In this document: positions 2 through 29,743 of the stretch, piece after piece
How positions within the stretch are numbered: the stretch's first letter is position 1
How the letters are laid out: each line of letters starts with the position of its first letter
Sequence record: SRR20825006_1712
Direction: 5' to 3' (one strand)
DNA: 52,122 bases
Translations under genes and position numbers: made by a program
The notes under the pieces: model-generated
Seen by the model: only the letters and a program-made list of their open reading frames with translations
Told to the model about the DNA's origin: nothing
Databases searched by the model: none

Positions 2-613
2 CTCTCTTTTCAACACGCCCCTACTCTTGAAACTTTGCGGTTTCCGGATATTCTTTTGGAAAGAGAGGAAAATCTGCTGATTTTGGGAAAATCAGGAATA
101 GGCAAGACAACCCTGCTGCATCTTTTAGCGGGGTTGCTCCAGCCTAAAACAGGGACCGTAAACCTTGAAAATATTGCACTGCACTCACTTTCCGCTAAAA
201 AAAGAGACCGGTTTGTGGGCCAGCATATCGGGTTGGTTTTTCAAAAAAACTATGCGATTCGCTCGCTTGATGTGATGCAAAATTTAGAAGCCCGATTGTT
301 TTTTGCCGGGCTTAAAGCTAAAAGAGAACGCTTACACGACCTTCTTGACCAACTGGATTTAGCAGCGCATAAAAACAAAAAAATACATCAGTTGAGCGAA
401 GGACAGCTGCAGCGCCTAGGTATTGCTCTTGCAGTGGTGCATCAGCCTCAGGTGATTCTCGCAGACGAACCTACTTCAAGTCTGGATGATGAAAATTGCG
501 AAGTAGTGATGCAATTGCTTTTAAAACAAGCTGAGCAGCAAAATGCCAACCTGGTGGTCATCACCCACGACGCCAGAGTAAAACCCCTATTTCAAAACCA
601 AATTACCCTATGA
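2..613 (+). CDS. ABC transporter ATP-binding protein (LolD/MacB-like), 5'-truncated by the window edge
   Basis: Walker A GKSGIGKT, signature LSEGQ, Walker B ILADEPT, H-loop ITHD. The frame is open from base 2 (LSFQHAPTLETLRF...), so the true start lies upstream of the window. Confidence 0.9.
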   Translation, partial: LSFQHAPTLETLRFPDILLEREENLLILGKSGIGKTTLLHLLAGLLQPKTGTVNLENIALHSLSAKKRDRFVGQHIGLVFQKNYAIRSLDVMQNLEARLFFAGLKAKRERLHDLLDQLDLAAHKNKKIHQLSEGQLQRLGIALAVVHQPQVILADEPTSSLDDENCEVVMQLLLKQAEQQNANLVVITHDARVKPLFQNQITL

Positions 614-1869
614 ATATCTGGAAAATCAGCTTAAGCAATATTTTTCACAAACCGCTCTATGCTTTGCTGAGCGTGCTTTCGCTTTCCATCAGTATTGGTT
701 TGTTGTTGGGAATTCAACAGTTGGATGCTTCTATTAAATATCAATTTGAAAACAGTTTGGGTGATGTTGATATGGTGCTTGGGGCGAAAGGGAGTCCGCT
801 ACAATTGGTGCTCGCCAGTGTGCTGCATATGGACAACCCTACCGGAAATATTTCTTTGGCGGAAGCCGAAAAAATTACCAAGAATCCGCTTATCAAAAAA
901 GCGGTACCCATCTCTTACGGCGACAATTATCAAGGGTATAGAATTTTAGGAAGCAACGAAGAATTTGCCGGTTTGTATGAAGCGGAACTCGTGGAAGGTC
1001 GTGAACCGTCAAAATCTATGGAAGTAATCTTGGGCAGCACCGTGGCAGAAGAAACCGATTTAAAAATAGGCGATACCTTTATGAGTTCGCACGGACTTAC
1101 AGAAAATACGGTAGAAGTGCACAACCACCCATTGACCGTTGTGGGTATCTACAAACCTACCTACAAGGTCATTGATAAACTTATCGTGACCCGGTTAGAA
1201 AGCATCTGGGATGTTCATGAGCACGGAGAAGAACATAATGAGGAAGCGCACGCAGGCACTGCTAGCCATCAAGAAGAAGAACACCATCACGATGACAAGG
1301 AACATCATCATAAGGAATCAGACAAGGAAATTACCGCTATGCTTGTTTCTTTTCGCAATGCGATGGGAATGTTAACCATGCCCAGACGCATTAATAAAGA
1401 AACCAATATGCAGGCGGCGCTACCCAATTATGAGCTGGAGCGCTTGTTTAATTTCACCGGGGTTGGTGTCAGGGCTGTATCGTGGATTGCCTATATCATC
1501 CTGGCGATTTCCTGTGTCACCATTTTTATCAGTCTGTTTAAAATGGTGCGCGAGCGTGCTTTTGACCTCGCATTGATGCGCACGTACGGCGCGAGTAACT
1601 TTCAATTGGTGCGCATCGTCGCGTACGAAGGATTCCTGCTTGTAATCGTTTCGCTACTTGTTGGCGCACTGCTTTCGCAAGTAGGTTTGCACTTTGCATT
1701 TTCGGCGTTTCAAAGTGGTTACAATCAAGATATACTTTTAAAACTCCCCTACGCTCAAATGGTCAAAACGGTGGTTCTAATTCTCACAATGGTAGCCATC
1801 GCCATTTTACTCGCCATACTGCCCATTTTAAAAATGAACGTTTCAAAAATATTAAGTAATGAAAAGTAA
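610..1869 (+). CDS. FtsX/MacB-type ABC permease with a His/Glu-rich extracytoplasmic loop
   Basis: N-terminal TM, large periplasmic domain (GAKGSPLQLVL, PISYGDNY), three C-terminal TMs, ER..DLALMR.YGAS motif. ATGA overlap with the ATPase gene. Confidence 0.88.
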   Translation: MNIWKISLSNIFHKPLYALLSVLSLSISIGLLLGIQQLDASIKYQFENSLGDVDMVLGAKGSPLQLVLASVLHMDNPTGNISLAEAEKITKNPLIKKAVPISYGDNYQGYRILGSNEEFAGLYEAELVEGREPSKSMEVILGSTVAEETDLKIGDTFMSSHGLTENTVEVHNHPLTVVGIYKPTYKVIDKLIVTRLESIWDVHEHGEEHNEEAHAGTASHQEEEHHHDDKEHHHKESDKEITAMLVSFRNAMGMLTMPRRINKETNMQAALPNYELERLFNFTGVGVRAVSWIAYIILAISCVTIFISLFKMVRERAFDLALMRTYGASNFQLVRIVAYEGFLLVIVSLLVGALLSQVGLHFAFSAFQSGYNQDILLKLPYAQMVKTVVLILTMVAIAILLAILPILKMNVSKILSNEK

Positions 1870-2392
1870 ACAACATCAGAGCAATCCTAGTAGGCATTGT
1901 TTGAAAACCAATTTTCAATTTCCAGGCAAGCCACGGAGTATTAAACCTTTTGGCGGCGCCAATAAAATTTGTTTAGGCCTGTTCCTACTGGTTTCATTTT
2001 TTGGCTATAGCCAAAAAAACATCATCTGGCAGGATCTTGCCCAAGTGAACTTTGAAGAGAAATATTTTGAAACATATGGAGAATATTTTCTGTATCCACA
2101 TTTTGAAGATTCACTCAAAGCGATGGAAGGAAAACAAGTGACCATTACCGGCTTCTTCTTAAATATCGATCCGGAAAACGACATTTATATTCTCTCAAAA
2201 TCACCAATGGCTTCTTGTTTTTTCTGCGGTGCTGCAGGCCCGGAAACCGCCATAGAATTACAGTTTGACAATCCATCAAAGTATAGAACTGATGACGTGG
2301 TGACCGTTACGGGCGTACTTAACCTCAACGCCGATGACATCAACCATTTCAATTACATTTTAACCGATTGCACCGTAAAACGTGCTAAATAA
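1859..2392 (+). CDS. DUF3299-family exported protein with a 32-codon repeat-derived N-terminal insertion
   Basis: W.DL, 'GKQVTITGF', SCFFCG motif and OB-fold-like C-terminus. Lies in the usual position after the ATPase and permease. Confidence 0.75.
   Translation: MKSKQHQSNPSRHCLKTNFQFPGKPRSIKPFGGANKICLGLFLLVSFFGYSQKNIIWQDLAQVNFEEKYFETYGEYFLYPHFEDSLKAMEGKQVTITGFFLNIDPENDIYILSKSPMASCFFCGAAGPETAIELQFDNPSKYRTDDVVTVTGVLNLNADDINHFNYILTDCTVKRAK
1867..1966 (+). repeat. MITE-like dispersed repeat, copy 1 (in frame inside the CDS)
   Basis: Aligns by eye with 17929-18041 and 19042-19156 (taaac...gca...aattttYaattt...ggca...gagtat...ggc). Bounded by TAAA at 1867-1870 and 1963-1966. Confidence 0.7.
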
Positions 2393-2414
2393 CCCCCTAT
2401 AAAATCAATTAAAA

Positions 2415-3827
2415 ATGAACAGAAGACACTTTTTTAGAAATACGACTTTAGGAGCGCTAGGTACATCGTTACTTACCCCTTTTGACTCGCTACAAGCTGC
2501 GGAGCACGCCCTGAGTTTCAAGAACAAAAAGGCTAAAAACATCATTATGCTAGTGAGTGACGGGATGAGCACCGGAACGCTAAATATGGCCGATTTACAC
2601 CTGCGTAGACACACCGGAAAAAGCAGTAACTGGATGCAATTGTACAGCGACAATAAAGTGACCCGCGCATTGATGGATACCGCTTCGGCGAGTTCAATAG
2701 TGACTGATTCGGCGGCGGCGGCTTCTTCCTGGGGTGGCGGTGTGCGCGTGCCCAATGGCGCACTCAACGTGAGCCAAAACGGGGAACAGCATTTACCCTT
2801 GTGGCAAAAGTTTAAAAAAGCAGGAAAAAAAGCGGGAACGGTAACCACCGTTCCGGCGACACACGCTACACCAGCTGGTTTTTGTGTGAATTCTAAATCG
2901 CGAAATGCGATGGAAGATATTGCCGAAATGTATCTGGAACATCGATTTGATGTCGTGATGGGCGGTGCTCAAAAGTATTTTTCCGCGGAAGCGAGAAAAG
3001 ATAAAAAAGATGTATTCGCTGCTTTTGAAAATGCCGGCTATCAAGTTTTTAAAAACCGTAAGGAAATGCTCAATGCTAAACGCAAAAAACCAATTCTTGG
3101 TGTTTTTGGCAATGATGCCCTGCCCTACGCCATTGACCGTGAAAATGAGGAAACGCTAAAAAAGGAAACTCCATCTCTCGCAGAAATGACCCAAACAGCA
3201 ATCGATGCGATGAAAGACCACAAACAAGGATTTACCTTACTCGTAGAAGGTGGAAAAGTGGACTGGGCCGCACACGCCAACGACATTGCCGGTCTTATTT
3301 TTGACCAGATCGCTTTTGACGAAGCCATTAAGACAGCGATTGATTTTGCCGAAAAGGAAAAAGAAACCCTCGTGATCATCACTACAGACCACGGAAATGC
3401 CAATCCCGGTGTGATTTATGGCGGGGATGCCAATGACCATTTTGATTCTATACAGCACTACAAACATTCCAACGAATGGATTTTAAATGGTTTTAATCCG
3501 GATACGACTTTAAGTCAAATCAAAGAACGTATCAACTATGCTAATGGAATAGGTATCACCGATGAAGAAGCGCAGACTATTGTGCGGTATTATGATGATT
3601 TGGTTGCTGAAGATGGTTTGTACAACCCGCGGCATTTACCTTTTGGCGTGCTTGCAGATATTCAAAAACGCTACAACTCCGTAGGATGGATCAGTATGCA
3701 GCACTCAGCAGATTATGTTGAACTCGCGATGTATGGCCCGGGTAGCGAACTTTTGCAACCTTTTGTAAAAAATACAGATCTACACTATTTAATGCTCAAA
3801 GCCGCAGAGGTTGAAAATGTGTTTTAG
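2415..3827 (+). CDS. Alkaline phosphatase (PhoA family) with twin-arginine signal
   Basis: NRRHFF Tat motif; SDGM, VTDSAAAAS (catalytic Ser), HATPA, VEGGKVDWAAHAND and TTDHGN metal-ligand motifs. Confidence 0.92.
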   Translation: MNRRHFFRNTTLGALGTSLLTPFDSLQAAEHALSFKNKKAKNIIMLVSDGMSTGTLNMADLHLRRHTGKSSNWMQLYSDNKVTRALMDTASASSIVTDSAAAASSWGGGVRVPNGALNVSQNGEQHLPLWQKFKKAGKKAGTVTTVPATHATPAGFCVNSKSRNAMEDIAEMYLEHRFDVVMGGAQKYFSAEARKDKKDVFAAFENAGYQVFKNRKEMLNAKRKKPILGVFGNDALPYAIDRENEETLKKETPSLAEMTQTAIDAMKDHKQGFTLLVEGGKVDWAAHANDIAGLIFDQIAFDEAIKTAIDFAEKEKETLVIITTDHGNANPGVIYGGDANDHFDSIQHYKHSNEWILNGFNPDTTLSQIKERINYANGIGITDEEAQTIVRYYDDLVAEDGLYNPRHLPFGVLADIQKRYNSVGWISMQHSADYVELAMYGPGSELLQPFVKNTDLHYLMLKAAEVENVF

Positions 3828-3866
3828 ATATTCATTGAACTAATGATGAAGTGGCGCAAAAAGTTT

Positions 3867-3874
3867 TACTTTTG
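3867..3874 (+). promoter_or_regulatory. Bacteroidota -7 promoter element (TACTTTTG), implying a nearly leaderless mRNA for the Cys-rich ORF
   Basis: Matches TAnnTTTG and ends 5 nt before ATG 3880. Confidence 0.5.
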
Positions 3875-3879
3875 AAGTG

Positions 3880-4182
3880 ATGAAAATCCTAGTGATACTT
3901 TTTGCGCTACTTACTTTTTCCCTTTCGACGGTTACCTGCTGCGTGGGGAATATTACGGGCGTTGAGTATCATCAAGACGATGAGGATGATTGTGAAGATG
4001 GTCCGTGTGATGAGCCTTGCTCTCCCTTTTTCAACTGCGGTACTTGTACAGGGTTTTCAGTGCAAGAATTTGAAAATCTTGACTTTCAGCAAGAACAAAT
4101 CCCTACTCAAAAAATCGTTTCCATCAGTTATTTAAGAGCTGGAGAATTTCACGATTCTTCCTTTCGGCCTCCCCGGGCGTGA
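3880..4182 (+). CDS. Small Cys-rich exported protein (DUF6660-like), candidate regulatory leader ORF
   Basis: Signal-like N-terminus, acidic/Cys segment, CSPFFNCGTCTGF, C-terminal FRPPRA. Lies directly upstream of the TonB receptor. Start is GTG 3877 or ATG 3880. Confidence 0.7.
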   Translation: MKILVILFALLTFSLSTVTCCVGNITGVEYHQDDEDDCEDGPCDEPCSPFFNCGTCTGFSVQEFENLDFQQEQIPTQKIVSISYLRAGEFHDSSFRPPRA

Positions 4183-4235
4183 TTAAAATTGACTTTGTTT
4201 TTTCGCTTTAAGCGAAATGAAATCTCATTTTAATC
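4181..4235 (+). promoter_or_regulatory. Nested RNA hairpin between the leader ORF and the TonB receptor
   Basis: GATTAAAAT (4181-4189) is complementary to ATTTTAATC (4227-4235), enclosing TTTCGC-ttaa-like loop-GCGAAA (4201-4217). Confidence 0.55.
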
Positions 4236-4251
4236 CTCTTAAATTCTTTAA

Positions 4252-6420
4252 ATGAAACATCTTCATTTATGGCTGTTGCTGCTGTGTTGCAGTGCGGCTT
4301 TTGCCCAAAATACCTTTGTGGCAACCCTTAAAAATGCTGAAACGCAAGAACCGCTTTATGGCGTTTCGGTAAGTATTATAACATTAAATAAAGGCGCAAT
4401 TTCTAATGCTGAAGGACTCGTACGCATCGAGAATATCCCTAACGGAACCTATGCGCTCGAGCTGCGCTATGTAGGTTTTAAAACCCAAAATATCACCAGA
4501 ACTTTTCCGTTGAGCGCAGAAGAAAACAATCAGACCTTTTACCTGCATCACGCAGAAGAAGAAATGGACGAAGTCGTTATCCAGTCGACCCGTAGTTCGC
4601 GTACCTTTCAAGATATTCCCACACGTCTGGAATTTATTGCTGGCGAAGAACTTGCCGAAAAAGGCAATATGAAACCGGGCGATATCAGGATGTTGCTCAA
4701 TGAAAGTACGGGTATTCAAACGCAGCAAACCTCTGCAACGAGTTACAATTCTAGCATTCGTATCCAGGGGTTAGACGGGAAATACACGCAATTGCTGCGG
4801 GATGGACTCCCACTCTATTCGGGATATTCCGGCGGATTGAGTTTAATGCAGATCGCTCCGCTTGACCTCAAGCAAGTGGAAGTGATAAAAGGAGCTTCGT
4901 CTACACTTTACGGTGGCGGTGCAATTGCCGGACTCGTCAATCTGATCTCGAAGACCCCGGAAGACGAACCCGAATTGAGTTTTATGGCGAACGGAACTTC
5001 TGCACTAGGACTGGACCTTAGTGGGTTTTACTCCCAAAAATACGGCAAGACCGGAGCAACGGTTTTTGCTTCCTATAATCTGGGAACACCTTACGACCCC
5101 GCAGACAACGGACTGACGGCTATTCCAAAATTTGAGCGCTTTACGTTGAATCCTAAGTTCTATCTGTATCTCAATGAGAAAACCAATTTGAATGTAGGTT
5201 TTAACTATGTAAACGAGGATCGCTTGGGTGGCGCGATGGATTATGTAAAAGGAGATAGCGAAACCGGTTATTTTGAGCGGAATAAAACAGACCGACTTTC
5301 AACACAAGTATTGGGCAGTCATCAGTTAAGCGATAACACGGCACTGACGGTAAAAAACAGTATCAGCTTTTTTGAACGCGAAATTGATATTCCCAGTTAT
5401 ACTTTCGCCGGAAGGCAAACCTCATCATTTTCTGAAGTCAATATTGCAACAAGCCTTGCAAAAACTGAATGGGTTGTCGGTGCTAACTTATGGACCGAAA
5501 ATTTTAAACAACAGCAAGGTGATCCTGCTCAGGACTTAAGTTTTACCAATTATACTGCTGGAGTTTTTGCACAAAATATTTGGGATATTCAAGAACAATG
5601 GACGCTGGAAACCGGCTTGCGTACCGATTATCAGAGCGATTATGGTGTGTTTGTTTTGCCGCGTTTATCGCTAATGTTTGAGCCTACTAACTTGCTCACC
5701 TTTAGAATAGGCGGTGGTATGGGCTATAAAACGCCCACGGTTTTTACTGAAGATGTGGAGCGCTTGCAGTTTAGAAGTGTGCAACCCATCAATATCGATG
5801 AGACTGACGCTGAACGTTCGATTGGCTTCAACCTGGACGGAAATTACAAATGGTCTATCACTAATGACCTGAATTTGTCAACTAACGTGCTTCTGTTTTA
5901 CACACGTATTGACGATCCTATAGTACTTAACCGCACCTCTGGAGCAATGTATGAGTTCATTCAACCGGGTGGTCATATTGAAAGTAGTGGTATTGAAGCA
6001 AATATGCGCTGGAAGTACAAAGATTTTAAACTGTTTGTAGGTTATACTCTGGCCGATGTCAATCAGCATTACAATGGGGCAAGCGAGCAATACCCTTTGG
6101 TGTCTCAGCATCGTCTTAATAATGTGTTGATGTATGAAAAACACGACAACTTCTGGATAGGTTTAGAAGGGTATTATTACAGTCCGCAGAAGTTGAATGA
6201 CGGCACCACCGGTCAATCCTATTGGATTTTAGGCGTGATGACCGAAAAGAAACTGGGTGAGAAATTTTCAGTATTTCTCAATTTTGAGAACTTTTTAGAT
6301 ACGCGTCAATCCCGTTTTGACACGATTTATACCGGTACGCTGAATGACCCAAATTTCAGGGATATTTACGCTCCAGTTGATGGCTTTGTGATCAACGGCG
6401 GTTTTAAATTAAAGTTATAG
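4252..6420 (+). CDS. TonB-dependent outer membrane receptor with N-terminal carboxypeptidase-regulatory-like domain
   Basis: Signal peptide; N-terminal extension (YALELRYVGF); 'MDEVVIQSTR'; plug motifs IRIQGL and VEVIKGASSTLYGGGAIAGLVNLISK; C-terminal beta strand GGFKLKL. Confidence 0.93.
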   Translation: MKHLHLWLLLLCCSAAFAQNTFVATLKNAETQEPLYGVSVSIITLNKGAISNAEGLVRIENIPNGTYALELRYVGFKTQNITRTFPLSAEENNQTFYLHHAEEEMDEVVIQSTRSSRTFQDIPTRLEFIAGEELAEKGNMKPGDIRMLLNESTGIQTQQTSATSYNSSIRIQGLDGKYTQLLRDGLPLYSGYSGGLSLMQIAPLDLKQVEVIKGASSTLYGGGAIAGLVNLISKTPEDEPELSFMANGTSALGLDLSGFYSQKYGKTGATVFASYNLGTPYDPADNGLTAIPKFERFTLNPKFYLYLNEKTNLNVGFNYVNEDRLGGAMDYVKGDSETGYFERNKTDRLSTQVLGSHQLSDNTALTVKNSISFFEREIDIPSYTFAGRQTSSFSEVNIATSLAKTEWVVGANLWTENFKQQQGDPAQDLSFTNYTAGVFAQNIWDIQEQWTLETGLRTDYQSDYGVFVLPRLSLMFEPTNLLTFRIGGGMGYKTPTVFTEDVERLQFRSVQPINIDETDAERSIGFNLDGNYKWSITNDLNLSTNVLLFYTRIDDPIVLNRTSGAMYEFIQPGGHIESSGIEANMRWKYKDFKLFVGYTLADVNQHYNGASEQYPLVSQHRLNNVLMYEKHDNFWIGLEGYYYSPQKLNDGTTGQSYWILGVMTEKKLGEKFSVFLNFENFLDTRQSRFDTIYTGTLNDPNFRDIYAPVDGFVINGGFKLKL

Positions 6421-6431
6421 CCTTAAAATAG

Positions 6432-6463
6432 AAAACCCGCCAAGAGCACTCTTAGCGGGTTTT
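6432..6463. terminator. Bidirectional intrinsic terminator
   Basis: AAAACCCGCCAAGAG-ca-CTCTTAGCGGGTTTT between convergent genes. Confidence 0.8.
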
Positions 6464-6483: not shown

Positions 6484-6990
6484 TTACATTTCTGCAGTTG
6501 TAGTGGTATCTACTTTAGCCATAATAGCCTGATGCTCATCCATCATCATGTTGTGTTCACTTTCCATTTCTTCGTGTTCACTCATAAGTTGCTGATGATT
6601 ATCCATCATTTCTTCAAGTTGTGCTTCCATTTCAGCTTCAGATTTTTCTTCAAAACCTGCCTTTAATTCTTCATGTGCTGCAATCATTGCATCGTGACCC
6701 TCAATAGTAGCCTCGTGTTTTTTCAAAATTGCCTCGTGTTTAGCAACATCTTCAAGAATGGTAGAATCTTGTAATTCCATCCCGTCTAGTGCAGTTGTGA
6801 ACTCTTCATGTTTCTGAGTCATTTCACTATGCACCGTTTTGAACTCGGCGTGCACCTGCTCAAGACTGTCGTGTTGCATTTCTAACTTGTCAAACTTTGC
6901 GGCAAGTTCTTTCTTTTGAGTATTCTCACAACCTACTAATACCAGTAGGAATGTAGAAAAGCTAAGTAATGTTCTAGATATAGTTTTCAT
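6484..6990 (-). CDS. His/Met/Glu-rich helical lipoprotein, probable metal-binding protein
   Basis: Lipobox LVG-C21; 12 His in three runs with exact 7-residue spacing. Confidence 0.75.
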   Translation of the reverse strand: MKTISRTLLSFSTFLLVLVGCENTQKKELAAKFDKLEMQHDSLEQVHAEFKTVHSEMTQKHEEFTTALDGMELQDSTILEDVAKHEAILKKHEATIEGHDAMIAAHEELKAGFEEKSEAEMEAQLEEMMDNHQQLMSEHEEMESEHNMMMDEHQAIMAKVDTTTTAEM

Positions 6991-7375
6991 AATTTTTAAT
7001 TTGGTCGAAATATAGTAAAATACTAGACTTGAGTATCTTAAAATTTATAAAAGCACAAAACATTTTGCTTTAAGCCAAATAACTACTTCTAGTATTCAAG
7101 CCTTTGCTCTGCATGTAAATTCCGCCAACAATAAATTCTACAACAATAACGTTTTCGTTGTAACAGTGCTTCTTCTTAAGAAGAGTGTTGACTTCTATAA
7201 AATTCTACAAAAGTGTAGAATAAGTCCACACTTTTGCTCTTAACAGCGCACACGGCACTTGAACACCTTTCCCCGTAAACTCTTGTTTTACAAGCGAAAC
7301 AGATTAAATCATTCAATTCTTCAGTTTGGGTCTTATTCTTGAATAATTCTATTCGGAAACCTAAAAAATTGAAAA

Positions 7376-19332: not shown

Positions 19333-19791
19333 ATGTTAAATCTTGTACGTACCGATTCAAAAAATCCTGATTTTTTGAAAATGGTAAAAGAACTGGATCA
19401 AACCCTCAAAGTCACTGATGGTGATGATCACGCATTTTACAATCAGTTTAATGCTTTAGACCGAATTAAGAATGTAATAGTCGCGTATGACAGCGGAATT
19501 CCTGTTGCTTGTGGCGCATTTAGAGAATATGGCCCCAGAAGCGTTGAGATCAAACGCATGTATACTAAGCCATTGTACCGCAAACGTGGATATGCCAGCG
19601 CCATTCTTGAGGCTTTAGAAAACTGGGCTATCGAAATAGGATACAATAAATGCGTGCTTGAGACCGGAATTTTTCAGCCACCTGCAATCGCTTTATACAA
19701 AAAGCGCCAGTATGATGTAATCCCTAATTACGGGCAATACAGCGGTGTTGGCGGCAGTATGTGTTTCTTAAAATACCTAGCAGCAAGTTAA
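19333..19791 (+). CDS. GNAT family N-acetyltransferase
   Basis: VACGAFR, EIKRMY, RKRGYA, LETG..Q..AI.LY.K. ATG 19333 preferred. Confidence 0.9.
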   Translation: MLNLVRTDSKNPDFLKMVKELDQTLKVTDGDDHAFYNQFNALDRIKNVIVAYDSGIPVACGAFREYGPRSVEIKRMYTKPLYRKRGYASAILEALENWAIEIGYNKCVLETGIFQPPAIALYKKRQYDVIPNYGQYSGVGGSMCFLKYLAAS

Positions 19792-20678
19792 ACCACACGA
19801 GCGATATCAACCTCAACGCTCAGTCTGCTTTTTCCACTACCATAAACCACTCCTTTTAACGGAGGGACATCATAATAATCTCTTCCCCAACCTACGACCA
19901 GATGCTGGTCGCCGGGGATTTGATTATTGGTAGGATCAAAATCTACCCATCCGAAACCCGGAATAAAAATAGAAAACCACGCGTGAGACGCATCTGCTCC
20001 TATTAGCTTTTCATGACCGGGCGGCGGAAGCGTTTCAATATACCCGCTTATGTAACGCGCCGGTAAGCCAATTGCTCGGATGCAAGCGATCGCGATTTGA
20101 GCAAAATCCTGACAAACGCCTTTGCGTTCTTGCATCACCACGTCTATAGGCGTTGACACACTGGTAAAGCCAGATACGAACTTAAAATCTGTATAAATGC
20201 GCTGCATTAATTCTTCTGCAGCTTCAAAAACAGAACGGTTGGGTTTAAAGCTTTCACGGGCATATTTTTCAACGGCCTCACCTGTTTTATTGATAAAAAT
20301 AGAATCTAAAACAAACTGTTTTGCATCAAGAATTTCAAGTTCTGTTTTCAATAAATTTTCCTTAGCCTGCTCGAGGCTTACTTTAGTACAACGGTCTGAT
20401 CTAAATTCGGTTTTATATTGCTCATACTCTCTGAGCAGTTTACTTTTAGTAGTTACTTTGAGCTGTTTGTGCTCTTTCTGAATTGAAAAGCGCGTGATGT
20501 AATTTCCGAAGAAATCTACACGCTCAGAAACTTCATCGGCTTCCGGCGCTATGCTCATTTTATATTCTAGCAACTCCTGCCCTAGCGAACGCCTTGGCTT
20601 TAATACTGCGATATTATGACAGTAGCTCACAGCCGCATCATAATCATATTTTGTGGTATGCGTAACGGAATACAACAT
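19788..20678 (-). CDS. Transglutaminase-like protein (Bact_transglu_N + core)
   Basis: H.T.Y.Y N-terminus; triad motifs GVCQDFA, SHAW and DFDPTN; GRDY.DV.P. Confidence 0.92.
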   Translation of the reverse strand: MLYSVTHTTKYDYDAAVSYCHNIAVLKPRRSLGQELLEYKMSIAPEADEVSERVDFFGNYITRFSIQKEHKQLKVTTKSKLLREYEQYKTEFRSDRCTKVSLEQAKENLLKTELEILDAKQFVLDSIFINKTGEAVEKYARESFKPNRSVFEAAEELMQRIYTDFKFVSGFTSVSTPIDVVMQERKGVCQDFAQIAIACIRAIGLPARYISGYIETLPPPGHEKLIGADASHAWFSIFIPGFGWVDFDPTNNQIPGDQHLVVGWGRDYYDVPPLKGVVYGSGKSRLSVEVDIARVV

Positions 20679-23242
20679 TAGAGCGGAAAGTTTTGATCTA
20701 CAAGCTGACTCTGCTTATATGTATGATTAAAGTAGGTGTTAGAAATTGCCTGAGAAGTAGCAAATAATAAATCGCTCAATTCTTCTAAAAGTTTATCCAG
20801 ATCCTTTCGAATATTTCCGTCGTTTTCCTTTACTGTAGCCAACTGATCTGAGTTCGCCAAGCGCAGTTTAGAAAAGGCTTCAAATACATATTTTTCGTAA
20901 TGCATAAGCGCGTCAGACTTTTGTGAATGTGGTAAACGCGAAATATCTTTTTGTAACCGCCCAAGCTGAAAGGTCAACGATCGTGGATATTTTAAATCCA
21001 TCAACAAAAGACTAATTACCGGTTCTACGCGTATATACGATCTGTAACTATAGCGGTAAATGTTTAAACTTTCGTGACTGCTTAACAAGGATTCTAGCAC
21101 TTCATATTCGGTTTGCCCAGATTGTTTGATCACCAGAAGCGAGCGGCATTTTGTAATCGTAAGCATACTCTGCTCTAACTGAAGGCCTATAAAATAAAGC
21201 AATAAGCCTTGTTCGACCATTATGCTTTCTTCAATAAGTCCCATAAAAGCGATCAAGCGCGTGATCAATTGATTTAAGGTTTTGATCATTTTATTGACGG
21301 TGATCTCTTTCTCATTTTCAAGATTGCGCCACAACTTTTGAATATTCTCAAAAACCCGCCACATATCGCTGCTCCACAGATTTCTGATCGAATAATAGCT
21401 GTTGCTGAACATCATCATCGAGTTGGCCAGGCTTCCTATTTTATTTCGGTCGAGCACTACGGCCATCATTTCTTTCAACGGATTATCTATCGCGTAAACA
21501 CCCTCTTTGTTTTTCTTCATAAAGCCGGGATACGTACCGGTCATCTGCGTCACTGCTTTATAGAGAATATTCATCTTTACCGAGCAGGTTTGCTGATTTG
21601 AAGATATCTCAGGCGTGTTCATTTGCTTGAGCACCATTCTTAGAAAACGGGCGTTGACTAAAGTGCGTCCCACATAACGTCCTGCCCAATATAAATTTTC
21701 TGCAGTTAGACTAGGCAGGTCATCAAGACCACTCGCCGATACAGCCGATTTACGATTCCAGCTGTAATTTGCGGTTTCTTCACTTTTAAGATCTCCAATG
21801 ATCCAAAAATCTTTGCTAGTCCCTCCGCGTTGGTTCGAAACTCGCAATTTACCACGTTCAGGAGCCACACGCACCAATCCGCCGGGCATCACATTATATC
21901 CGTTTTTACCTGCAATAGTAAATGTACGCGCAACCATATTACGCGGTTCAAAAGTTCCTTTTGAATAATTAGGCGCTGTTGAAAAACTTATACGTTCCTG
22001 CGCAACAAAATGATAAGGCTTCTTTAAAATTTCTTTCCGAAGTGTTGCCAGCTCTTCATCGGTCATTTGAGAACCAAAATGTATATGTTCGCGATTGGTA
22101 CGATCAATCGGCTTAATCACCAGATTTGCTAAATTCTTCAGCACATAATCTTTCTCTTTTTCTTGCCCACACCACCAACTCGCAATTTGCGGAAGCTGTA
22201 ATTCTTCCTTCAAAAAATATTTACAAATAGCCGGCATAAAAGGAATAAGACCCGGATTTTCTAATACGCCGCTCCCAATAGGGTTTACCACCGCCACATT
22301 CTGTCTACGTACCACGTCAAGTAAGCCGGCGACTCCCAAGTGAGAATCTTCACGCAACTCCAAAGGATCTGTAAATACATCGTCAACGCGCCGCAAAACC
22401 ACGTGTACTTTTTTCAACCCCTTGAGTGATTTCATAAAGAGAAATCCATCACGCACCACCAAGTCATTTCCCTGAACTAACGGATAACCTAAAAAGGACG
22501 CTAAATAGGCGTGTTCAAAATAGGTCTCGTTATGCGAGCCCGGAGTGAGAATAACAATATTGGGGTTTTCGACTTTATCAGGAGAAGCTTCAAGCAACAA
22601 CTCATTGAATTCTTTAAAGAATTCTGAAAGCCGCTTGATGTTCATCTCAGCAAAAATATCAGAAAGTACCCGGTTTGCTGTTGAGCGGTTTTCGAGGGCA
22701 TATCCCATTCCTGAGGGTGCCTGAGAACGATCATTTACCACCCACATTCTACCATCAGTTCCGCGGGCGAGATCTGCAGCATACAGCAATAAATGCTTAT
22801 CAATCTTATACTGAATTTTATCACATTGCCTTAAAAACCCGCGATGCCCGTAGATCACTTCGTGCGGGACAATACCTTCTTTGATCAACTTGCGCTCTCC
22901 ATAAACATCTTTTAGCACTAAGTCTAACAAGTGCGCCCGTTGCTTGAGGCCTTTTTCAATTTTCTGCCATTCCTTAGCCTGAAGAATTAAAGGAACTACA
23001 TTAAGATTCCAAGGGCGGTTTAACCCATTGGGATCATTATATACATTATACGTAACCCCGTTTTCTTCCAGCAGCCAGTTGATATCGTTTTGACGTTGTG
23101 TCAAACCGTCAATCCCTATGCGCTTAAAGTTCTCTAAAAGCTCCTGCCAATCTTCCTTAACGCTGAGATCTGGGGTAAACATCTCGTCGTAGGTATAATC
23201 TGTAAAATACTTGGTGAACCAAGCATTAGTAGCCACGGTCAT
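20678..23242 (-). CDS. Circularly permuted type 2 ATP-grasp protein fused to an alpha-E domain
   Basis: NGVTYNVY, QAPSGMGYALENR, YFEHAYLA, RRVDD, MPGGLVRV, GGTSKDFW; then alpha-E motifs AENLYWAGRY and PRSL.F.L. Confidence 0.9.
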   Translation of the reverse strand: MTVATNAWFTKYFTDYTYDEMFTPDLSVKEDWQELLENFKRIGIDGLTQRQNDINWLLEENGVTYNVYNDPNGLNRPWNLNVVPLILQAKEWQKIEKGLKQRAHLLDLVLKDVYGERKLIKEGIVPHEVIYGHRGFLRQCDKIQYKIDKHLLLYAADLARGTDGRMWVVNDRSQAPSGMGYALENRSTANRVLSDIFAEMNIKRLSEFFKEFNELLLEASPDKVENPNIVILTPGSHNETYFEHAYLASFLGYPLVQGNDLVVRDGFLFMKSLKGLKKVHVVLRRVDDVFTDPLELREDSHLGVAGLLDVVRRQNVAVVNPIGSGVLENPGLIPFMPAICKYFLKEELQLPQIASWWCGQEKEKDYVLKNLANLVIKPIDRTNREHIHFGSQMTDEELATLRKEILKKPYHFVAQERISFSTAPNYSKGTFEPRNMVARTFTIAGKNGYNVMPGGLVRVAPERGKLRVSNQRGGTSKDFWIIGDLKSEETANYSWNRKSAVSASGLDDLPSLTAENLYWAGRYVGRTLVNARFLRMVLKQMNTPEISSNQQTCSVKMNILYKAVTQMTGTYPGFMKKNKEGVYAIDNPLKEMMAVVLDRNKIGSLANSMMMFSNSYYSIRNLWSSDMWRVFENIQKLWRNLENEKEITVNKMIKTLNQLITRLIAFMGLIEESIMVEQGLLLYFIGLQLEQSMLTITKCRSLLVIKQSGQTEYEVLESLLSSHESLNIYRYSYRSYIRVEPVISLLLMDLKYPRSLTFQLGRLQKDISRLPHSQKSDALMHYEKYVFEAFSKLRLANSDQLATVKENDGNIRKDLDKLLEELSDLLFATSQAISNTYFNHTYKQSQLVDQNFPL

Positions 23243-23260
23243 ATTCAGGGTTGTAAATAA

Positions 23261-26200
23261 TTATTTCTTTCGCAAATCTAGCAAATGTGGGAATTCTGGA
23301 TTCACCGGAATTTCCTTAAAATTAAAGGTTTTATCTGAAGAAGTTGATTTTAAAGTTCGGCCTGCCAGCTTGGTGTCGGGTTCCTTTTCGGTATACACTA
23401 AAGTTCCTTGTGTATGACCAATATCCCAAAAACGATTGATTCTTCTAGATTCAGCTTCTAAGCTATTAATTGGGTACGTCTCATAATTGCGCCCTCCCGG
23501 ATGTGATACAAAATACGTACAACCGCCTATGGAGCGTTGATTCCATAAATCAACAATATCAAAAACCAGAGGCGTATCTACCGGAATCGTTGGGTGCAAA
23601 GCAGACCAAGGCTGCCAAGCTTTATAGCGCACGCCGGCAACATATTCTCCTTTAACACCGGTGTTGCTCAGTTGTACTTTCACGCCGTTGCAGGTCAACA
23701 CATAGCGCTCGTCATTAAAGTTTGAAACTTTGATCTGCACGCGTTCTAAAGACGAATCAACATAACGCGATGTCCCGCCACCATTCATTTCTTCTCCCAG
23801 TACATTCCACGGTTCTATCGCGGCGCGCAATTCGACCTTCATATCTTTAATATCGACCAAACCGTACAATGGGAAACGGAATTCAAAAAACGGATCAAAC
23901 CAATCTAATTTGAATGGATATCCTGCTGCGTTAAGTTGTGCAACAATATCCTTTATATCTTCTCGCACATAATGTTCCATCAAGAATTTGTCGTGCAATT
24001 GTGTGCCCCAACGGGTGAGTTTGTGCTTGTACGGTTCATTCCAAAACCAGCTGACCAGTGTGCGTACAAGCAGCATTTGCATCAAACTCATTTGTGCGTG
24101 TGGCGGCATATCAAACGCGCGTAGTTCAAGAATTCCTAACCTGCCGGAAGACGAATCTGGCGAATATAATTTATCGATACAAAACTCTGCACGATGCGTA
24201 TTTCCGGTGATATCAGTAAGCAAATGCCTGAACAAACGATCGGTCAACCAAAACGGCACATCTTCATCCTCCGGAATTTGATTGAATGCAATTTCCAGTT
24301 CGTATAAATTTTCCTGGCGGCCTTCATCTACTCGTGGCGCCTGACTCGTAGAACCAATAAATCCACCGGAAAATAAATAAGAAAGTCCCGGATGATGCTG
24401 CCAGAATGTAAGCAAGCTGCGCAACAAATCAGGTCGGCGCAACAACGGACTATTAGCCGGGGTGACACCGCCTAAAGTCACGTGATTTCCGCCGCCGGTG
24501 CCGGTGTGTTTTCCATCAAGCATAAATTTTTCAGTACCCAAACGGCTCTTTTTAGCCTCTTCATACAGCGTAAGCGTATTTTTGGTAAGTTCGTCCCAAT
24601 TCTTCGCCGGGTGAACATTCACTTCAATAACTCCGGGATCTGGCGTAACTTTCAATACCTCAAGACGATTATCTCGTGGCGGCTCGTAACCTTCGATCAA
24701 TACAGGCACGCTTAGCTTTTTTGCTGCTGCTTCCACCGAAGCCATCAGGTCAATAAACGTTTCCGCGTTGTCTAAAGGCGGAAGAAATAAATAAAGCTTT
24801 TTATCCCGAACCTCAGCACAAATCGCAGTTCGAGCAAACGGATTCTTTTCTTGCTTATCTGCATTGTAATCAACCTTGCCATTTTTCTTTTTAGGCTTTT
24901 CTGCGGCTTTACGTTTTTCTAAAGCTTCACCGTACGGCCCAAAAGGCTTTCGCTTGTCAAAAAGATCAGGATCTGCAATGGGTTGTGTAGGCACATCGGG
25001 TTCTTCAATAAGCGAATTAAGCGGTAATCGTAAACCTACCGGAGAATTCCCAGGAATGAGGAAAAGATGATTTCTTCGGAAACGCCACGGACTCGTGACC
25101 CATTTTCCTTGAATATTGGCAAGTGGCATTACGTGGCCTATCTTTTTATCCAATCCTTGTTCTAAAACTTTATTGAGACGATTACGCACCGAAGTCGCAA
25201 CATCATCGCCTTTTAACGGATCAACATCTATAGGCAGCCTTCCTTCTTCCCACATAAAATAAAATACGTCTTCATACGCCGGTGTGATGTATTCTAAACG
25301 AATCCCGAGGTTCAGCGCTAATTCTTGTAAAAAAGTCTTGGTAATTCCTTCCGGCAGATCATATTCCTCATTAAAAGATGCCATAAGCGACTCGTCTTTC
25401 CAAATAGGAATGCCGTCTTTACGCCAATGTAAACCTATAGACCAGCGTGGAATAGGTTCGCCGGGATACCATTTTCCCTGCGCGTGGTGAAACATTCCAC
25501 CTTGACCAAATTTATGCAACAAGCGTTTAGAAAGTCCTTCAGAAAGTTTGCGCTTTTCAGGACCATCTGCAGCGGTATTCCACTGATCTGATTCCATATC
25601 ATCTATAGAAACAAAAGTCGGTTCCCCTCCCATCGTAAGACGTACATCGCCAGCTTGCAATTCTTTTTCAACCTCAAAACCTAGCTCATAAATTGCTTTC
25701 CATTGAGATTCTGTATACGGCTTGGTGACTCGCGGAGATTCAAATATTCGGGTAACGGAATTATCAAATTCAAATTCAGTTTCCGCAGGATCAGAAAAAC
25801 CAACCACCGGCGCAGCGCTTTCAAAAGAAGGTGTACACGCTAACGGAATATGTCCTTCTCCCGCCAATAAACCTGAAGTTGAATCGAGACCAATCCAGCC
25901 GGCTCCGGGAATATAGACTTCTGCCCAAGCGTGCAAATCAGTAAAATCTTCTTCTGGACCAGAAGGACCATCTAACGATTTTTCGTCAGATTTTAACTGT
26001 ACCAAATAACCCGAAACAAAGCGTGCCGCCAGTCCTAAATGCCGTAAGCTTTGTACCAGTAACCAGGCAAAATCACGACAAGAACCTAATTTTTTCTCCA
26101 GCGTTTCTTCACAAGATTGTACGCCCGGCTCCATACGCACCGTATAATTGAGGTACTCGTTGATGTGACGGTTGAGACCAATCAAAAAGTAAATCGTGAG

Positions 26201-26610
26201 CTGCTCTGAAACATCAATAGTTTTTAAAAACTTCTTCAGTAGCGGACCGTCGTCTGTTATTTCTAGATACGGAAGTAATTCTTTTTTTAGTGAATCTTTG
26301 TATTTAAACGGAAATTCTTCCACCGAATCTTCCACAAAAAAATCAAACGGATTGATCGTTTTAAGGTCGGCTATGATTTCAACATCTATAGAAAGTTCAT
26401 CTGTTTTTTCAGGAAAAACCACACGCGCCAGGTAATTTCCAAAGGGATCTTGCTGCCAGTTAAAAAAGTGATTTTCCGGCTTTATTTTAAGCGAATAAGC
26501 CTCAATGGGAGTTCTGCTATGGGGCGCAGTCTAAAAATATGTGGCGAAAGCGAAATACGTTTATCATACTTGTATTTCGTCTTATGAGAGATCGCAACTT
26601 TTAAGGCCAT
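23261..26610 (-). pseudogene. Transglutaminase + DUF2126 (putative amidoligase) fusion gene, frameshifted near codon 29
   Basis: ATG 26610 reads MALKVAISHKTKYKYDKRISLSPHIFRLRP and then leaves frame. The main frame resumes APHSRTPIEAYSLKIKPENHFFNWQQDPFGNYLARVVFP. Motifs GSCRDFAW, DLHAW, TMGGEPTF, TPDPGVIEVN and GTGGGNH are present. Confidence 0.85.
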
Positions 26611-26832: not shown

Positions 26833-27852
26833 TTATTCTTGTTTTAAAAATGCCAAAAAATGCTGATGCATCGCTTCGGTATAATCGTAATGTGTTACGA
26901 TACGAAGTTTACCTTTTCCTAAGGCACTGATGTGTATATCTTCGGCTTTGAGGCGTTCTATAAACTGTAACTCATCTGCATCTGCGCGCAGGTTAAAAAT
27001 CAAAATATTGGTTTCTACCGGCTCTACGTGCGCTACTTCTGCATGCTGATTTAAAGCAATTGAAAGTTCTTGAGCGCGCTTGTGATCATCTGCCATACGC
27101 TGCCAATGATGCTCAATACCGTACAGCCCAGCCGCCGCAGCAAAACCTACCTGACGCATACCGCCACCTAAAACTTTGCGTACGCGCATCGCTTTATCCA
27201 TAAATTTTTGTTTACCCACAAGCACAGAACCCATTGGCGCACCTAAGCCTTTAGACAAGCACACTGAAATCGTATCAAACGCAGCCCCATAATCTTTAGG
27301 AGATTCATCGGTTACTACGAGCGCGTTCCATAGACGTGCTCCGTCAAGATGAAAACCTAAACCGTGATCGTCACAGATCTTTCTGATTTTTAAAATCTCT
27401 CTAAAATCATAACAGGCTCCGCCTCCTTTATTGGTGGTATTTTCAAGGCACACCAGAGACGTCAACGGACTGTGATAAAAATCTGGCGGATTGATATGTT
27501 CTTCAACCTGATCTGCCGTGATCATACCGCGATGCCCATCAACGAGTTTGCACGAAACGCCGCTGTTAAACGAAACGCCGCCTCCTTCATAATTGTAAAC
27601 GTGCGCGTATTTATCTGCTATAAGTTGCTCGCCAGGTTGCGTATGAATTTTAATCGCCGCTTGATTGGTCATCGATCCTGTTGGAAAATACAGCGCCGAG
27701 TCCATCCCAAATAATTCAGCAATATGCGCTTCTAGTTTATTAACGCTGGGATCTTCTTTATATACATCATCACCAACTTCGGCGTGCATCATTGCATCTA
27801 ACATTCCCGGAGTGGGTTTTGTGATCGTATCGCTACGCAGGTCTATTTTCAT
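26833..27852 (-). CDS. ltaE: Low-specificity L-threonine aldolase (PLP)
   Basis: DLRSDTIT.PT, GDDVY.EDP, LENT.N, HLDGARL.NA, CLSKGLGAP.GS. Confidence 0.92.
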   Translation of the reverse strand: MKIDLRSDTITKPTPGMLDAMMHAEVGDDVYKEDPSVNKLEAHIAELFGMDSALYFPTGSMTNQAAIKIHTQPGEQLIADKYAHVYNYEGGGVSFNSGVSCKLVDGHRGMITADQVEEHINPPDFYHSPLTSLVCLENTTNKGGGACYDFREILKIRKICDDHGLGFHLDGARLWNALVVTDESPKDYGAAFDTISVCLSKGLGAPMGSVLVGKQKFMDKAMRVRKVLGGGMRQVGFAAAAGLYGIEHHWQRMADDHKRAQELSIALNQHAEVAHVEPVETNILIFNLRADADELQFIERLKAEDIHISALGKGKLRIVTHYDYTEAMHQHFLAFLKQE

Positions 27853-27872
27853 TCTATATTATTTTTTCTTAA

Positions 27873-28682
27873 TTATCTTAAATGTTCCCCGCCATCAACC
27901 GGAATCACCGCTCCGTTGATCCAGTTGGCTTCGGGTTTGGTCAACAAGTACACCACATTGGCAACATCCTCCGGAGTGGTCAATCGCTTTTGCGGGTTGC
28001 GTTCTAGTGCCTGAGCTATAAGCTGATCACTTCCCGGGATCAATTGTAAACTTTCGGTATTGGTTACACCGGCTTGAATACAATTGGCTGTAATTTTCAA
28101 TGGTGCCAACTCAAATGCTAAACTGCGAATTATGGCTTCTAAAGCTGCTTTTGCTGCGGAAACTGCCGCGTAATTGGGTAAAGGTTTTGTGCTTCCTTCG
28201 CTTGTAAAAGTTAGGATTTTCCCGTTTTCTTCAAATAAACCAGCGTTTGCAAATGCGCTCGCCCAGTCGTATAAACTCACCGCCATCGCTTCGGCAGTAA
28301 GTATAAAATCCTTCCCGGAAAGTTTAGCTACGGAAGCGTCCTCTGCATAAATAGGTTTGAGATTTCCTTTGGCAATACTGTGCAATAACACTTTTACTGA
28401 AGCATTGCGCTCTGTAAAGAAATCTTTTACCTTATCAATAGTTGCCGGGTTGAGCGCATCAATATTAAAGCTTTCGATCTGAATTCCTGTTTCGCGCAAA
28501 ACTTCAATCGTATGGTTAAATTCCTCGAGTTTGCTTCTGCGCGTGCGGTGCACGATGCAAAGATGTAAACCCTTAGCGGCGAGTTTTTTTGCCGAAGCAA
28601 AACCTAAACCGCTGCTTCCACCTAAGATCAGTGCCCAACTATTAGACGTGTCTTCGGTATTAAATTCAAAAGTATTTACCAT
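27873..28682 (-). CDS. SDR-family oxidoreductase (enoyl-ACP reductase FabL-like)
   Basis: GGSSGLG, Y(AAVSAA)K YX6K spacing typical of enoyl reductases, PEDVANVV, VDGG. Confidence 0.82.
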   Translation of the reverse strand: MVNTFEFNTEDTSNSWALILGGSSGLGFASAKKLAAKGLHLCIVHRTRRSKLEEFNHTIEVLRETGIQIESFNIDALNPATIDKVKDFFTERNASVKVLLHSIAKGNLKPIYAEDASVAKLSGKDFILTAEAMAVSLYDWASAFANAGLFEENGKILTFTSEGSTKPLPNYAAVSAAKAALEAIIRSLAFELAPLKITANCIQAGVTNTESLQLIPGSDQLIAQALERNPQKRLTTPEDVANVVYLLTKPEANWINGAVIPVDGGEHLR

Positions 28683-29743
28683 TGTAACAATATACGTTGT
28701 GCTGAAAAACCGGGACCAAAACTAAGCATCAATCCATAATCTTCGGCAGGAATTTTTCTATTTAAAAAACGTTCTAGAACATACAACACGGTTACACTGC
28801 TCATATTGCCATAAAGTCGAAGAACTTCTTTAGTATCGTCAATATTTTTTCCGGAAGCGCCAAACAAGCTTTCCACGGTCTGAACGATCTTCTTTCCGCC
28901 GGGATGAAATACCAAATTATTAACTTCTGAAATACTTATGTCATTCTTTGCGAGAAACGGATTGATAATCTGTGGAAAGTGCGCTGCTATAGTTTCTGGA
29001 ACCGATTTATCAAGAATCATTTTGAGTCCGTTGTTTGTCAGGTCAAATCCCATCATCTGTTCGGCATCGTAAAAATGATACATTTCGGTATCGATGATTT
29101 TTGGTCCTAACGCCTGTTCTTCTGAAGAAAGCAATACGCAGGCCGCGCCATCACCAAAAATCGCCGCGCTCACTATATTAGCCATCGAAAAATCATCTAG
29201 CTGAAAAGTCGCCGTTGGACTTTCTACCGCGATAACAGCAGCACGTTTACCGGGATTGGCTTTAAGAAAATCATTCGCATACAAGATCCCCGAAATTCCT
29301 GCGGCGCAACCCATTTCGGTGACCGGTAATCGGGTAATGTCTTGTTTCAGCTTTAAGCGGTTAATGAGATAGGCATCAAGCGACGGAATCATAATTCCCG
29401 TGCAACTCACGGTGATGATGTAATCTAGCGATTGCGCCTCCCAACCTGTTTTTTCAAGTGCTGAGCGCAAGGCATCTCCTCCAAGTTTGATTGCCTCACG
29501 TTTATAAATGTTGTTTTTATGCTCAAAGGAAGTCGCGGTAAACACCTCATCGGGAGCCATAATGCTATACCGCTTATCTACCCCGGCATTGCTGAAAATC
29601 TTTTTTACTTTACGCTGAAAACGCTCTTCATGCCCTGCCATCCATTGCGTGACCAACGGGAGAATCTCTTGGGTTTCGCGACTGTATTTTGGGACAGCTT
29701 TGGCTACACCTGCGATTGCTACTTTTGATTTTCTAATATCCAT
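28676..29743 (-). CDS. Type III polyketide synthase (chalcone-synthase-like)
   Basis: Catalytic triad EMGCAAG, HPGG, GNMSS; FGDGA; FGPGF. ATG 29743 preferred over 29767. Confidence 0.93.
   Translation of the reverse strand: MDIRKSKVAIAGVAKAVPKYSRETQEILPLVTQWMAGHEERFQRKVKKIFSNAGVDKRYSIMAPDEVFTATSFEHKNNIYKREAIKLGGDALRSALEKTGWEAQSLDYIITVSCTGIMIPSLDAYLINRLKLKQDITRLPVTEMGCAAGISGILYANDFLKANPGKRAAVIAVESPTATFQLDDFSMANIVSAAIFGDGAACVLLSSEEQALGPKIIDTEMYHFYDAEQMMGFDLTNNGLKMILDKSVPETIAAHFPQIINPFLAKNDISISEVNNLVFHPGGKKIVQTVESLFGASGKNIDDTKEVLRLYGNMSSVTVLYVLERFLNRKIPAEDYGLMLSFGPGFSAQRILLQW

Follow-up and report, generated by a model that had tools for sequence, protein, structure and literature searches.

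The lipoprotein gene and its locus

The window, by which we mean the whole analysed stretch of DNA of 52,122 nt, carries on its minus strand a complete ORF whose product begins with MKTISRTLLSFSTFLLVLVGC (Table 1). This ORF is a real gene. An orthologue with 95% identity is present in the nearest genome compared, and three short contigs of one marine metatranscriptome (run X18) match positions 6674-6931 with 95-99% identity. Inside the ORF, nine of the ten variant sites of these contigs are located at third codon positions, which points to a coding sequence shaped by purifying selection and suggests that closely related strains carry the gene under such selection. There is also a weak hint that the gene is transcribed, given by contigs that cover only part of the ORF and belong to a kind of library (RNA) that can contain DNA.

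In the preliminary description, which was made from the sequence alone, the product was called a lipoprotein, and our analysis bears this out. The signal peptide ends with the lipobox L-V-G-C21, which fits the bacterial consensus [LVI][ASTVI][GAS]C, and the Cys of the lipobox is conserved without exception in all 47 aligned relatives. This residue, the only Cys of the protein, is the lipid anchor. The mature form has 148 aa, a mass of approximately 17 kDa and a pI of 4.6. It contains 12 His and 14 Met, and its 38 Asp and Glu stand against 12 Lys and Arg (net charge about -27 at pH 8).

Table 1. Features at the lipoprotein locus and at related loci. Positions are those of the window unless a locus is named.
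Feature	Position	Strand	Basis or remark
ABC ATPase	2-613	plus	
MacB-type/FtsX permease (MacB_PCD/FtsX)	610-1869	plus	
177-aa protein with CFFCG motif	1859-2392	plus	
PhoA-family alkaline phosphatase	2415-3827	plus	
Cys-rich 101-aa protein	within 2-6420	plus	weakly like DUF6660 (E 0.02, below cut-off)
TonB-dependent receptor	4252-6420	plus	convergent with the lipoprotein gene
Terminator-like hairpin	6432-6463	minus	14-bp stem, then T-rich tail; 21 nt past the stop codon
Lipoprotein gene, complete ORF	6484-6990	minus	ATG start, 168 aa
Predicted helix 3, residues 118-167	6490-6639	minus	AlphaFold2; His132/139/146/153
Predicted helix 2, residues 76-115, antiparallel	6646-6765	minus	AlphaFold2; His85/92/99/106
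Predicted helix 1, residues 24-69	6784-6921	minus	AlphaFold2 and heptad profile; His40/47/54/61 at heptad ‘a’
Signal peptide and lipobox, residues 1-21 (LVG-C21)	6928-6990	minus	sequence and alignment
Divergent intergenic region	6991-7375		common to the lipoprotein gene and the RND adaptor gene
MerC-family proteins	L049:9829-10248, L051:8569-8976, L061:4059-4472		
Approximately 270-aa GQHIHF lipoprotein	L049:10279-11091, L064:6899-7711, L066:15072-15878, L051:15905-16456		
Low-His paralogue loci	L058 (G001:C8), L057, L068		

Downstream of the gene, the terminator-like hairpin separates it from the convergent TonB-dependent receptor gene. Upstream, its promoter is presumably located in the divergent intergenic region. 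The same region harbours a 22-bp palindrome at positions 7140-7161 with the half-sites ACAAC...AACG / CGTT...GTTGT, which occurs once in the window versus 0.03 occurrences expected by chance. This palindrome is probably an operator.

The preliminary description placed the gene between a metal-linked uptake cluster and an RND pump. Our analysis contradicts the idea of a metal pump: the divergent RND system scores 966 bits with TIGR00915 (HAE1), which is over the cut-off, and 339 bits with the CusA/CzcA model TIGR00914, for which the cut-off is 701. Judged by these models, the adjoining pump is clearly of the multidrug HAE1 type. The gene row at 2-6420 on the plus strand is tightly packed, and its ABC system is split as in MacB-type systems. 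This arrangement recalls the Zur-regulated PA4063-PA4066 cluster described for Pseudomonas aeruginosa (PMC11481552), the likeness of the ABC part being to PA4064-PA4066. The 177-aa CFFCG protein was considered as an analogue of PA4066, but it has no Pfam match above 0.03 and no PDB sequence match, and thus the link to PA4063-PA4066 stays a resemblance. No named-family copper or zinc efflux or uptake gene was found beside the lipoprotein gene, and no metal genes were found in the rest of the window. Two unrelated clusters on the minus strand are located there, one with circularly permuted ATP-grasp, DUF2126 and transglutaminase-like genes (19788-26422) and one with genes for a type III polyketide synthase, a methyltransferase, a short-chain dehydrogenase and a beta-eliminating lyase (26833-31541).

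When the 16-kb neighbourhoods of 20 family genes were compared with the window, the family gene turned out to be monocistronic in most cases and set off by spacers of 100-300 bp, and the genes around it change from genus to genus. The uptake cluster next to the gene is suggestive only. The neighbourhood is not conserved across genera. Those neighbours that do recur sit among the members with many His residues. At 3 of the 20 loci, in three genera, small membrane proteins of the MerC family with His-rich loops (e.g. HGHSHP) are encoded a few genes off. An unnamed lipoprotein of approximately 270 aa with conserved GQHIHF, HH and YHES motifs is encoded near ladder genes in four genomes, one of these four loci being the syntenic region of the nearest genome; it has no Pfam match and no PDB sequence match, and may be another metal-binding lipoprotein. 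The trio of ABC, FtsX and CFFCG genes lies beside a family member in two genera (the window and locus L051), and DUF5829, DUF5916 and DUF3526 ABC-2 genes are found near two loci. A TonB-dependent receptor gene adjoins the family gene in the window and once elsewhere, there together with a gene for a PepSY_TM protein. Taken together, these scattered neighbours are suggestive of a metal-related neighbourhood. In the upstream 220 bp of 14 family genes, we detected neither a Zur/Fur-like or other common motif nor a common palindrome; the best 8-mers are AT-rich and occur in 14 of the 14 genes, not exceeding the maximum of 13-14 in shuffled sequences.

Histidine ladders in an uncurated lipoprotein family

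According to the preliminary description, every His of the protein belongs to one of three heptad ladders of four steps. This was confirmed at the exact positions: the 12 His residues are found at 40/47/54/61, 85/92/99/106 and 132/139/146/153, with no His elsewhere, and when the mature sequence was shuffled 200,000 times, no shuffle attained the nine His-His pairs at spacing i/i+7 seen here. The residues at His+3 are L, F, M, F in the first ladder, I, T, M, L in the second and L, M, M, I in the third. Thus, the additional claim of a hydrophobic residue or Met at each His+3 is valid for 11 of 12 positions and fails for T95 of the motif HEAT. Four of the motifs are of the HxxM type (HSEM, HDAM, HEEM and HNMM), and the third helix is Met-rich (HQQLM, HEEM, HNMMM and HQAIM).

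A word-indexed search retrieved only two relatives, including a ‘lipoprotein’ of Christiangramia crocea with 48% identity, in which 10 of the 12 His residues are kept. With phmmer, 65 relatives were found among 1.84 billion cluster representatives at E<=1e-3, 25 of them at E<=1e-10 and 3 at E<=1e-30, the majority being lipoproteins 156-187 aa long in which His forms heptad ladders. The best Pfam match is a generic coiled coil with 19.1 bits (cut-off 25.2), and the best NCBIfam match reaches 17.9 (cut-off 99.75). A Pfam scan of 47 aligned members gave coiled-coil noise only. The 30 nearest clusters in the ESM Atlas are without a common Pfam family, and all are unannotated ‘hypothetical protein/lipoprotein’ entries of Bacteroidota. 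By these comparisons the protein is a member of no curated Pfam or NCBIfam family, and the concern that it might belong to an already characterised one was not substantiated, as no model of either collection reaches its cut-off. In the PDB, a phmmer search of the chain sequences with two members found no relative, and a profile of 47 sequences run against all chains gave 113 matches, the best 60 of which include no His-zipper entry. Among these best 60 are the Cu-3SCC and Cu-4SCC designs as weak matches (E 0.01-0.3). The literature library searched yielded nothing on this lipoprotein family.

At E<1e-20, the family profile matched over the full length in 20 of 301 Flavobacteriaceae genomes, a sample of about one genome per genus. 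Of 401 genomes sampled across the phylum, 12 match at E<=1e-12, and these are distributed across three taxonomic families. Members outside the Flavobacteriaceae keep the ladders, for example at 35-63, 74-109 and 123/137/144. Since the occurrence is phylum-wide but scattered, we consider this unnamed family of lipoproteins of approximately 160 aa in Bacteroidota to be old but patchy.

The first alignment comprised 47 of 67 sequences, i.e. the window protein and 46 of the relatives P0001-P0066, after removal by eye of 20 sequences that were fragments or too long. The number of sequences with His at the successive ladder columns is 14, 27, 32 and 35 in the first helix, 37, 34, 35 and 37 in the second and 30, 28, 26 and 33 in the third, and His is almost absent from the other columns. 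In a wider set (n=74), which contained all sequences of 140-200 aa and the members derived from genomes, the corresponding numbers are 26, 49, 54 and 54; 61, 52, 52 and 60; and 45, 42, 42 and 48. Thus, the suggested search of homologues for a conserved pattern of three times four His had a positive outcome, with His in 42-61 of the 74 sequences at 11 of the 12 columns. The columns of helix 2 are best conserved (52-61 of 74).

All 12 columns are filled with His in only 7 of the 74 sequences. The number of His residues per member ranges from 1, in P0058, to 20, and a relative from another genus, G035, shows three ladders of six (29-64, 74-109 and 123-158). A paralogue type that is common in the genus of the window has His at only 4 of the 12 columns (47, 54, 85 and 106); the nearest genome carries such a low-His paralogue in addition to its orthologue with 12 His. 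The existence of members with few His implies that the function of the scaffold does not depend on full ladders. In the genus of the window the low-His paralogue is located in a conserved gene row, between a gene for a DEAD-box helicase and genes for an S9 peptidase and a tricorn-like S41 protease.

The profiles of the three helices can be aligned with each other in register (hhalign probability 93-96%). An origin by triplication was considered but is not proven by this result, because the common periodicity of His-x-x-hydrophobic alone could align the helices.

Predicted fold and layering of the histidines

To describe the environment of the ladders, a heptad profile was pooled over 12 heptads and 74 sequences. 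Position ‘a’ is occupied by His in 66% of the cells (585 of 886) and by charged residues in 3%; its non-His residues are mostly Gln, Leu, Asn and Tyr, with Gln and Asn making up 113 of 301. At position ‘d’, 94% of the residues are hydrophobic (Leu 29%, Ile 25%, Met 25%), the share of Met being unusually high. Position ‘b’ is 61% charged, with 47% Asp/Glu, positions ‘c’, ‘f’ and ‘g’ are polar or charged, and ‘e’ is about half hydrophobic. Compared with the 3% at ‘a’, the charged share at ‘b’, ‘c’, ‘e’, ‘f’ and ‘g’ is 35-61%. At the sequence level, this profile is characteristic of a coiled-coil core that has His in alternate layers. It marks the ladder position as buried, which speaks against the possibility, named at the outset as one that would undermine the idea, that the His residues face the solvent. 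Four residues before His132, Met is found in 35 of 47 sequences.

AlphaFold2, when supplied with the 47-sequence alignment, predicted the three helices listed in Table 1 with a mean pLDDT of 93.4 and a pTM of 0.80. For the distant relative with three ladders of six His it predicted helices at 26-65, 72-110 and 116-171 (pLDDT 92.7, pTM 0.78). Although AlphaFold2 can be over-confident on idealised helical repeats, a single-chain three-helix bundle, as proposed in the preliminary description, is supported by the confident models of these two members. Searches with the models led to no specific natural family. Foldseek against the PDB gave no match at E<=0.001 for either model, the lists consisting of hairpins and bundles of a generic kind, FadA and Vipp1 among them, without a His-zipper entry in the top 50. 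VIA-align retrieved only generic or designed antiparallel three-helix bundles, with a best Z of 12.8, which is within the stated noise of the tool for helical bundles; among them, the designed single-chain antiparallel coiled coil sc-apCC3 (9rgv) superimposes with 1.8 A rmsd over 97 residues. A complex prediction with two copies of residues 22-168 and four Zn gave run scores of 0.42, 0.00 and 0.00 and no verdict.

If His residues touch each other across helices, they are expected to be gained and lost together. We therefore calculated sequence-weighted correlations of His presence in the 74 sequences (effective number about 61). The strongest pairs between helices are r(92,146)=0.72, r(99,139)=0.71, r(61,153)=0.59 and r(106,132)=0.53, and these are the partners expected of an in-register up-down-up bundle with the layers 40/106/132, 47/99/139, 54/92/146 and 61/85/153. 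The mean r is 0.37 for the 12 pairs within these layers and 0.135 for the 36 other pairs between helices (Mann-Whitney p=9e-4, an optimistic value, since the 74 sequences are related and their independence is overstated). Of the 576 possible assignments of the helix 2 and helix 3 His residues to those of helix 1, the up-down-up scheme ranks first. The correlations of the helix 1 His residues are weaker than the other ones between helices. Those between helix 2 and the next rung of helix 3 are lower than within the layers (r 0.46-0.50), and there may be some interdigitation of His between rungs. Lost His layers are typically replaced by combinations of Gln/Leu or Met/Leu, which again indicates that the ladder columns are core positions.

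Cross-helix layering of the His residues is thus supported by their co-variation. That the ladder His residues point into the core of the bundle is likewise supported, the evidence here being the heptad logic and co-variation alone. In this respect the proposal of four His layers in the core held up well, with the buried character of position ‘a’ and the top rank of the scheme both in its favour.

Relation to known coiled coils and a possible role in metal binding

Natural coiled coils with regularly spaced His have been described by Hartmann and Lupas as His zippers (PMC8616854), the first one seen being Dld1 of Serendipita indica, a DELD protein (PDB 5LOS). Bacterial examples from Nitrosococcus, Meiothermus and Methylobacter, which were the CASP14 targets T1083, T1084 and T1087, are described there as antiparallel homodimers with His interfaces within and/or between chains. 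The same report gives 15-23% identity of the known His zippers to one another, states that HHpred missed them, and says that its authors ‘can only speculate’ on metal-ion scavenging (PMC8616854). The DELD family is presented as a set of secreted fungal proteins, 101-135 aa long, in which His and Ala recur at regular spacing and for which a bundle of two helices is predicted (PMC3192844). Like these proteins, the lipoprotein is small and, by prediction, an extracytoplasmic coiled coil with regular His between antiparallel helices; their defining trait, regular His at an antiparallel interface, was found here in the His content of position ‘a’ and the co-varying His residues of helices 2 and 3. 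It differs from them, in that His zippers are two-helix hairpins of approximately 100 aa, monomeric or homodimeric, whereas the lipoprotein is a predicted single-chain three-helix bundle of 148 aa. Moreover, DELD proteins are rich in His and Ala, whereas the lipoprotein has His at ‘a’, Leu, Ile and Met at ‘d’, and a lipid anchor. By analogy, it may work like the His-zipper coiled coils and may be distantly related to them. The architecture had been called distinct in the preliminary description, and this is right for the three helices and the lipid anchor; the His zippers were overlooked as the closest precedent, and with them the architecture is less unprecedented than claimed. If the models are correct, what is new in comparison with the known His zippers would be the three helices, the core of His and Leu/Ile/Met rather than His and Ala, and the lipid anchor.

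Three-stranded coiled coils designed with a single His layer are described to form His3 sites that bind Co(II)/Zn(II) (PMC13262294), which shows that such chemistry is feasible. In the de novo His3 coiled coils (TRI/GRAND and alpha3D-type), each of the three helices carries His at a core heptad position, as in the lipoprotein, and the three residues make up a site for Zn(II), Co(II) or Cu (PMC13262294); the designs have one layer, in contrast to the four to six natural, conserved layers of the family, and the likeness lies in the presumed working and not in ancestry. With the copper storage proteins Csp1 and Csp3 the lipoprotein would share the concept of a helical bundle that holds many ions by means of metal ligands lining its core. 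The Csp proteins are four-helix bundles lined by Cys, unlike the three predicted helices with His and Met and the single anchor Cys of the lipoprotein. The periplasmic Ag/Cu binders SilE/PcoE and CopM are acidic, disordered proteins with HxxM-type motifs on helices. The lipoprotein resembles them in the motifs, in the envelope location and in the acidic character, and differs by its predicted stable bundle and by the lack of sil, pco and cop genes nearby. Profiles for SilE/PcoE and CopM (DUF305) were absent from the Pfam matches of the protein even at E<=10, and from those of the 47 relatives.

Based on our observations, we give a probability of roughly 0.5 to the reading that the protein is a lipid-anchored, His-layered three-helix bundle which binds several metal ions and acts as a buffer, scavenger or store in the envelope. 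It would be an envelope protein with a single-chain up-down-up coiled coil about 45 residues long. In its core, ‘d’ layers of Leu, Ile and Met would alternate with ‘a’ layers to which each helix contributes one His, with four His layers in the window protein and none to six in its relatives. The stacked His layers, embedded in a very acidic shell, would bind borderline transition-metal ions, roughly one per layer, with Zn(II) most likely and Cu, Ni or Co possible, and the protein, tethered to the membrane, would buffer, scavenge or store metal of the envelope. We infer metal binding, like the metal identity, the stoichiometry and the physiological role; the reasons for metal binding are the layers, which resemble sets of ligands and come and go as units, the Met-rich layers next to them, the acidic shell, the design precedents and the metal-flavoured neighbours. 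Zn(II)-type divalent ions are favoured because the sites would consist of His only, without Cys, in an acidic shell, and the Met content makes Cu(I)/Cu(II) the main alternative. Against a metal role stand the low-His members and the fact that neither a conserved operon nor a regulatory signal was observed. A further-reaching view, which we put forward only tentatively and hold to be somewhat doubtful, is that the family constitutes a natural multi-site metal store with one ion per His3 (or His/Met) layer, its capacity being tuned by whole layers from 0 to 6.

The same bundle might also do its work without metal. Buried hydrogen-bond layers of His, Gln and Asn would then set the register of the helices, or allow an opening driven by pH or a partner, in a structural or adaptor lipoprotein. 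In line with this, Gln and Asn often take the place of His at ‘a’, P0058 is left with a single His and the paralogues of the genus with four columns, the conserved gene row of these paralogues contains nothing metal-related, no metal regulon signal was found upstream of the 14 family genes, and the structural matches include designed helical bundles that contain hydrogen-bond networks (5j0l). However, His is strongly preferred over Gln/Asn at ‘a’ (585 versus 113) and is gained and lost as whole layers, and the Met-rich ‘d’ positions and very acidic shell are expected for cation binding but unneeded by a polar core; we hold this explanation to be unlikely, if still a serious one. Somewhat less probable to us is a soft binder of Cu(I)/Ag(I) that uses mixed His/Met sites (HxxM, MxxxH) as an envelope copper sponge of the SilE/PcoE or CopM kind. 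The Met share at ‘d’ throughout the family, the conserved Met before His132, the four HxxM motifs and the 14 Met in 148 mature residues would fit such a protein, but Met may simply be a hydrophobic core residue, no Cu/Ag-binding family appears among the Pfam matches at E<=10, and no P-type ATPase, multicopper oxidase, CusCBA or CopC/D was found near the loci examined.

Two other explanations assign the His faces to partners. The protein could be a true member of the His-zipper family, with His faces acting between the chains of a homo-oligomer, as in the antiparallel homodimers reported for bacterial His zippers (PMC8616854). The correlation between helix 2 and the next rung of helix 3 is what interdigitation predicts, but AlphaFold2 puts the three helices of two distant members into one chain-internal bundle, the co-variation of the layers takes in all three helices, and a sequence match among PDB chains is lacking (for the profile, among the best 60 of 113 matches). 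We regard this as improbable. Less credible still is that haem or a different tetrapyrrole is held by bis-His ligation across helices, as in designed maquettes, and is transferred to the TonB-dependent receptor. It is true that the strongest co-variation is that of helix 2-helix 3 His pairs, and that the receptor gene adjoins the lipoprotein gene here and, with the PepSY_TM protein gene, in one other genus. Nevertheless, a tight three-helix core has no room for a porphyrin, the receptor gene is convergent here with the terminator-like hairpin between the two genes, such adjacency was seen in only two independent loci of 20 compared, and no haem-uptake family was detected.

To return to the reading as a metal-binding bundle: if the His layers bind metal, the protein would give marine Bacteroidota, whose trace-metal handling is, to our knowledge, poorly known, a compact means of buffering or storing metal in the envelope that is also genetically simple. 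It would also provide a natural template for the design of multi-site metallo-coiled coils and the first functional handle on His-cored coiled coils, the role of which has so far been a matter of speculation. As a multi-site store, it would do with His what the Csp stores do with Cys, and would give the designed His3 coiled coils a precedent in nature. Last but not least, the family is without a Pfam or NCBIfam model, and its definition would improve the annotation of many ‘hypothetical lipoproteins’.
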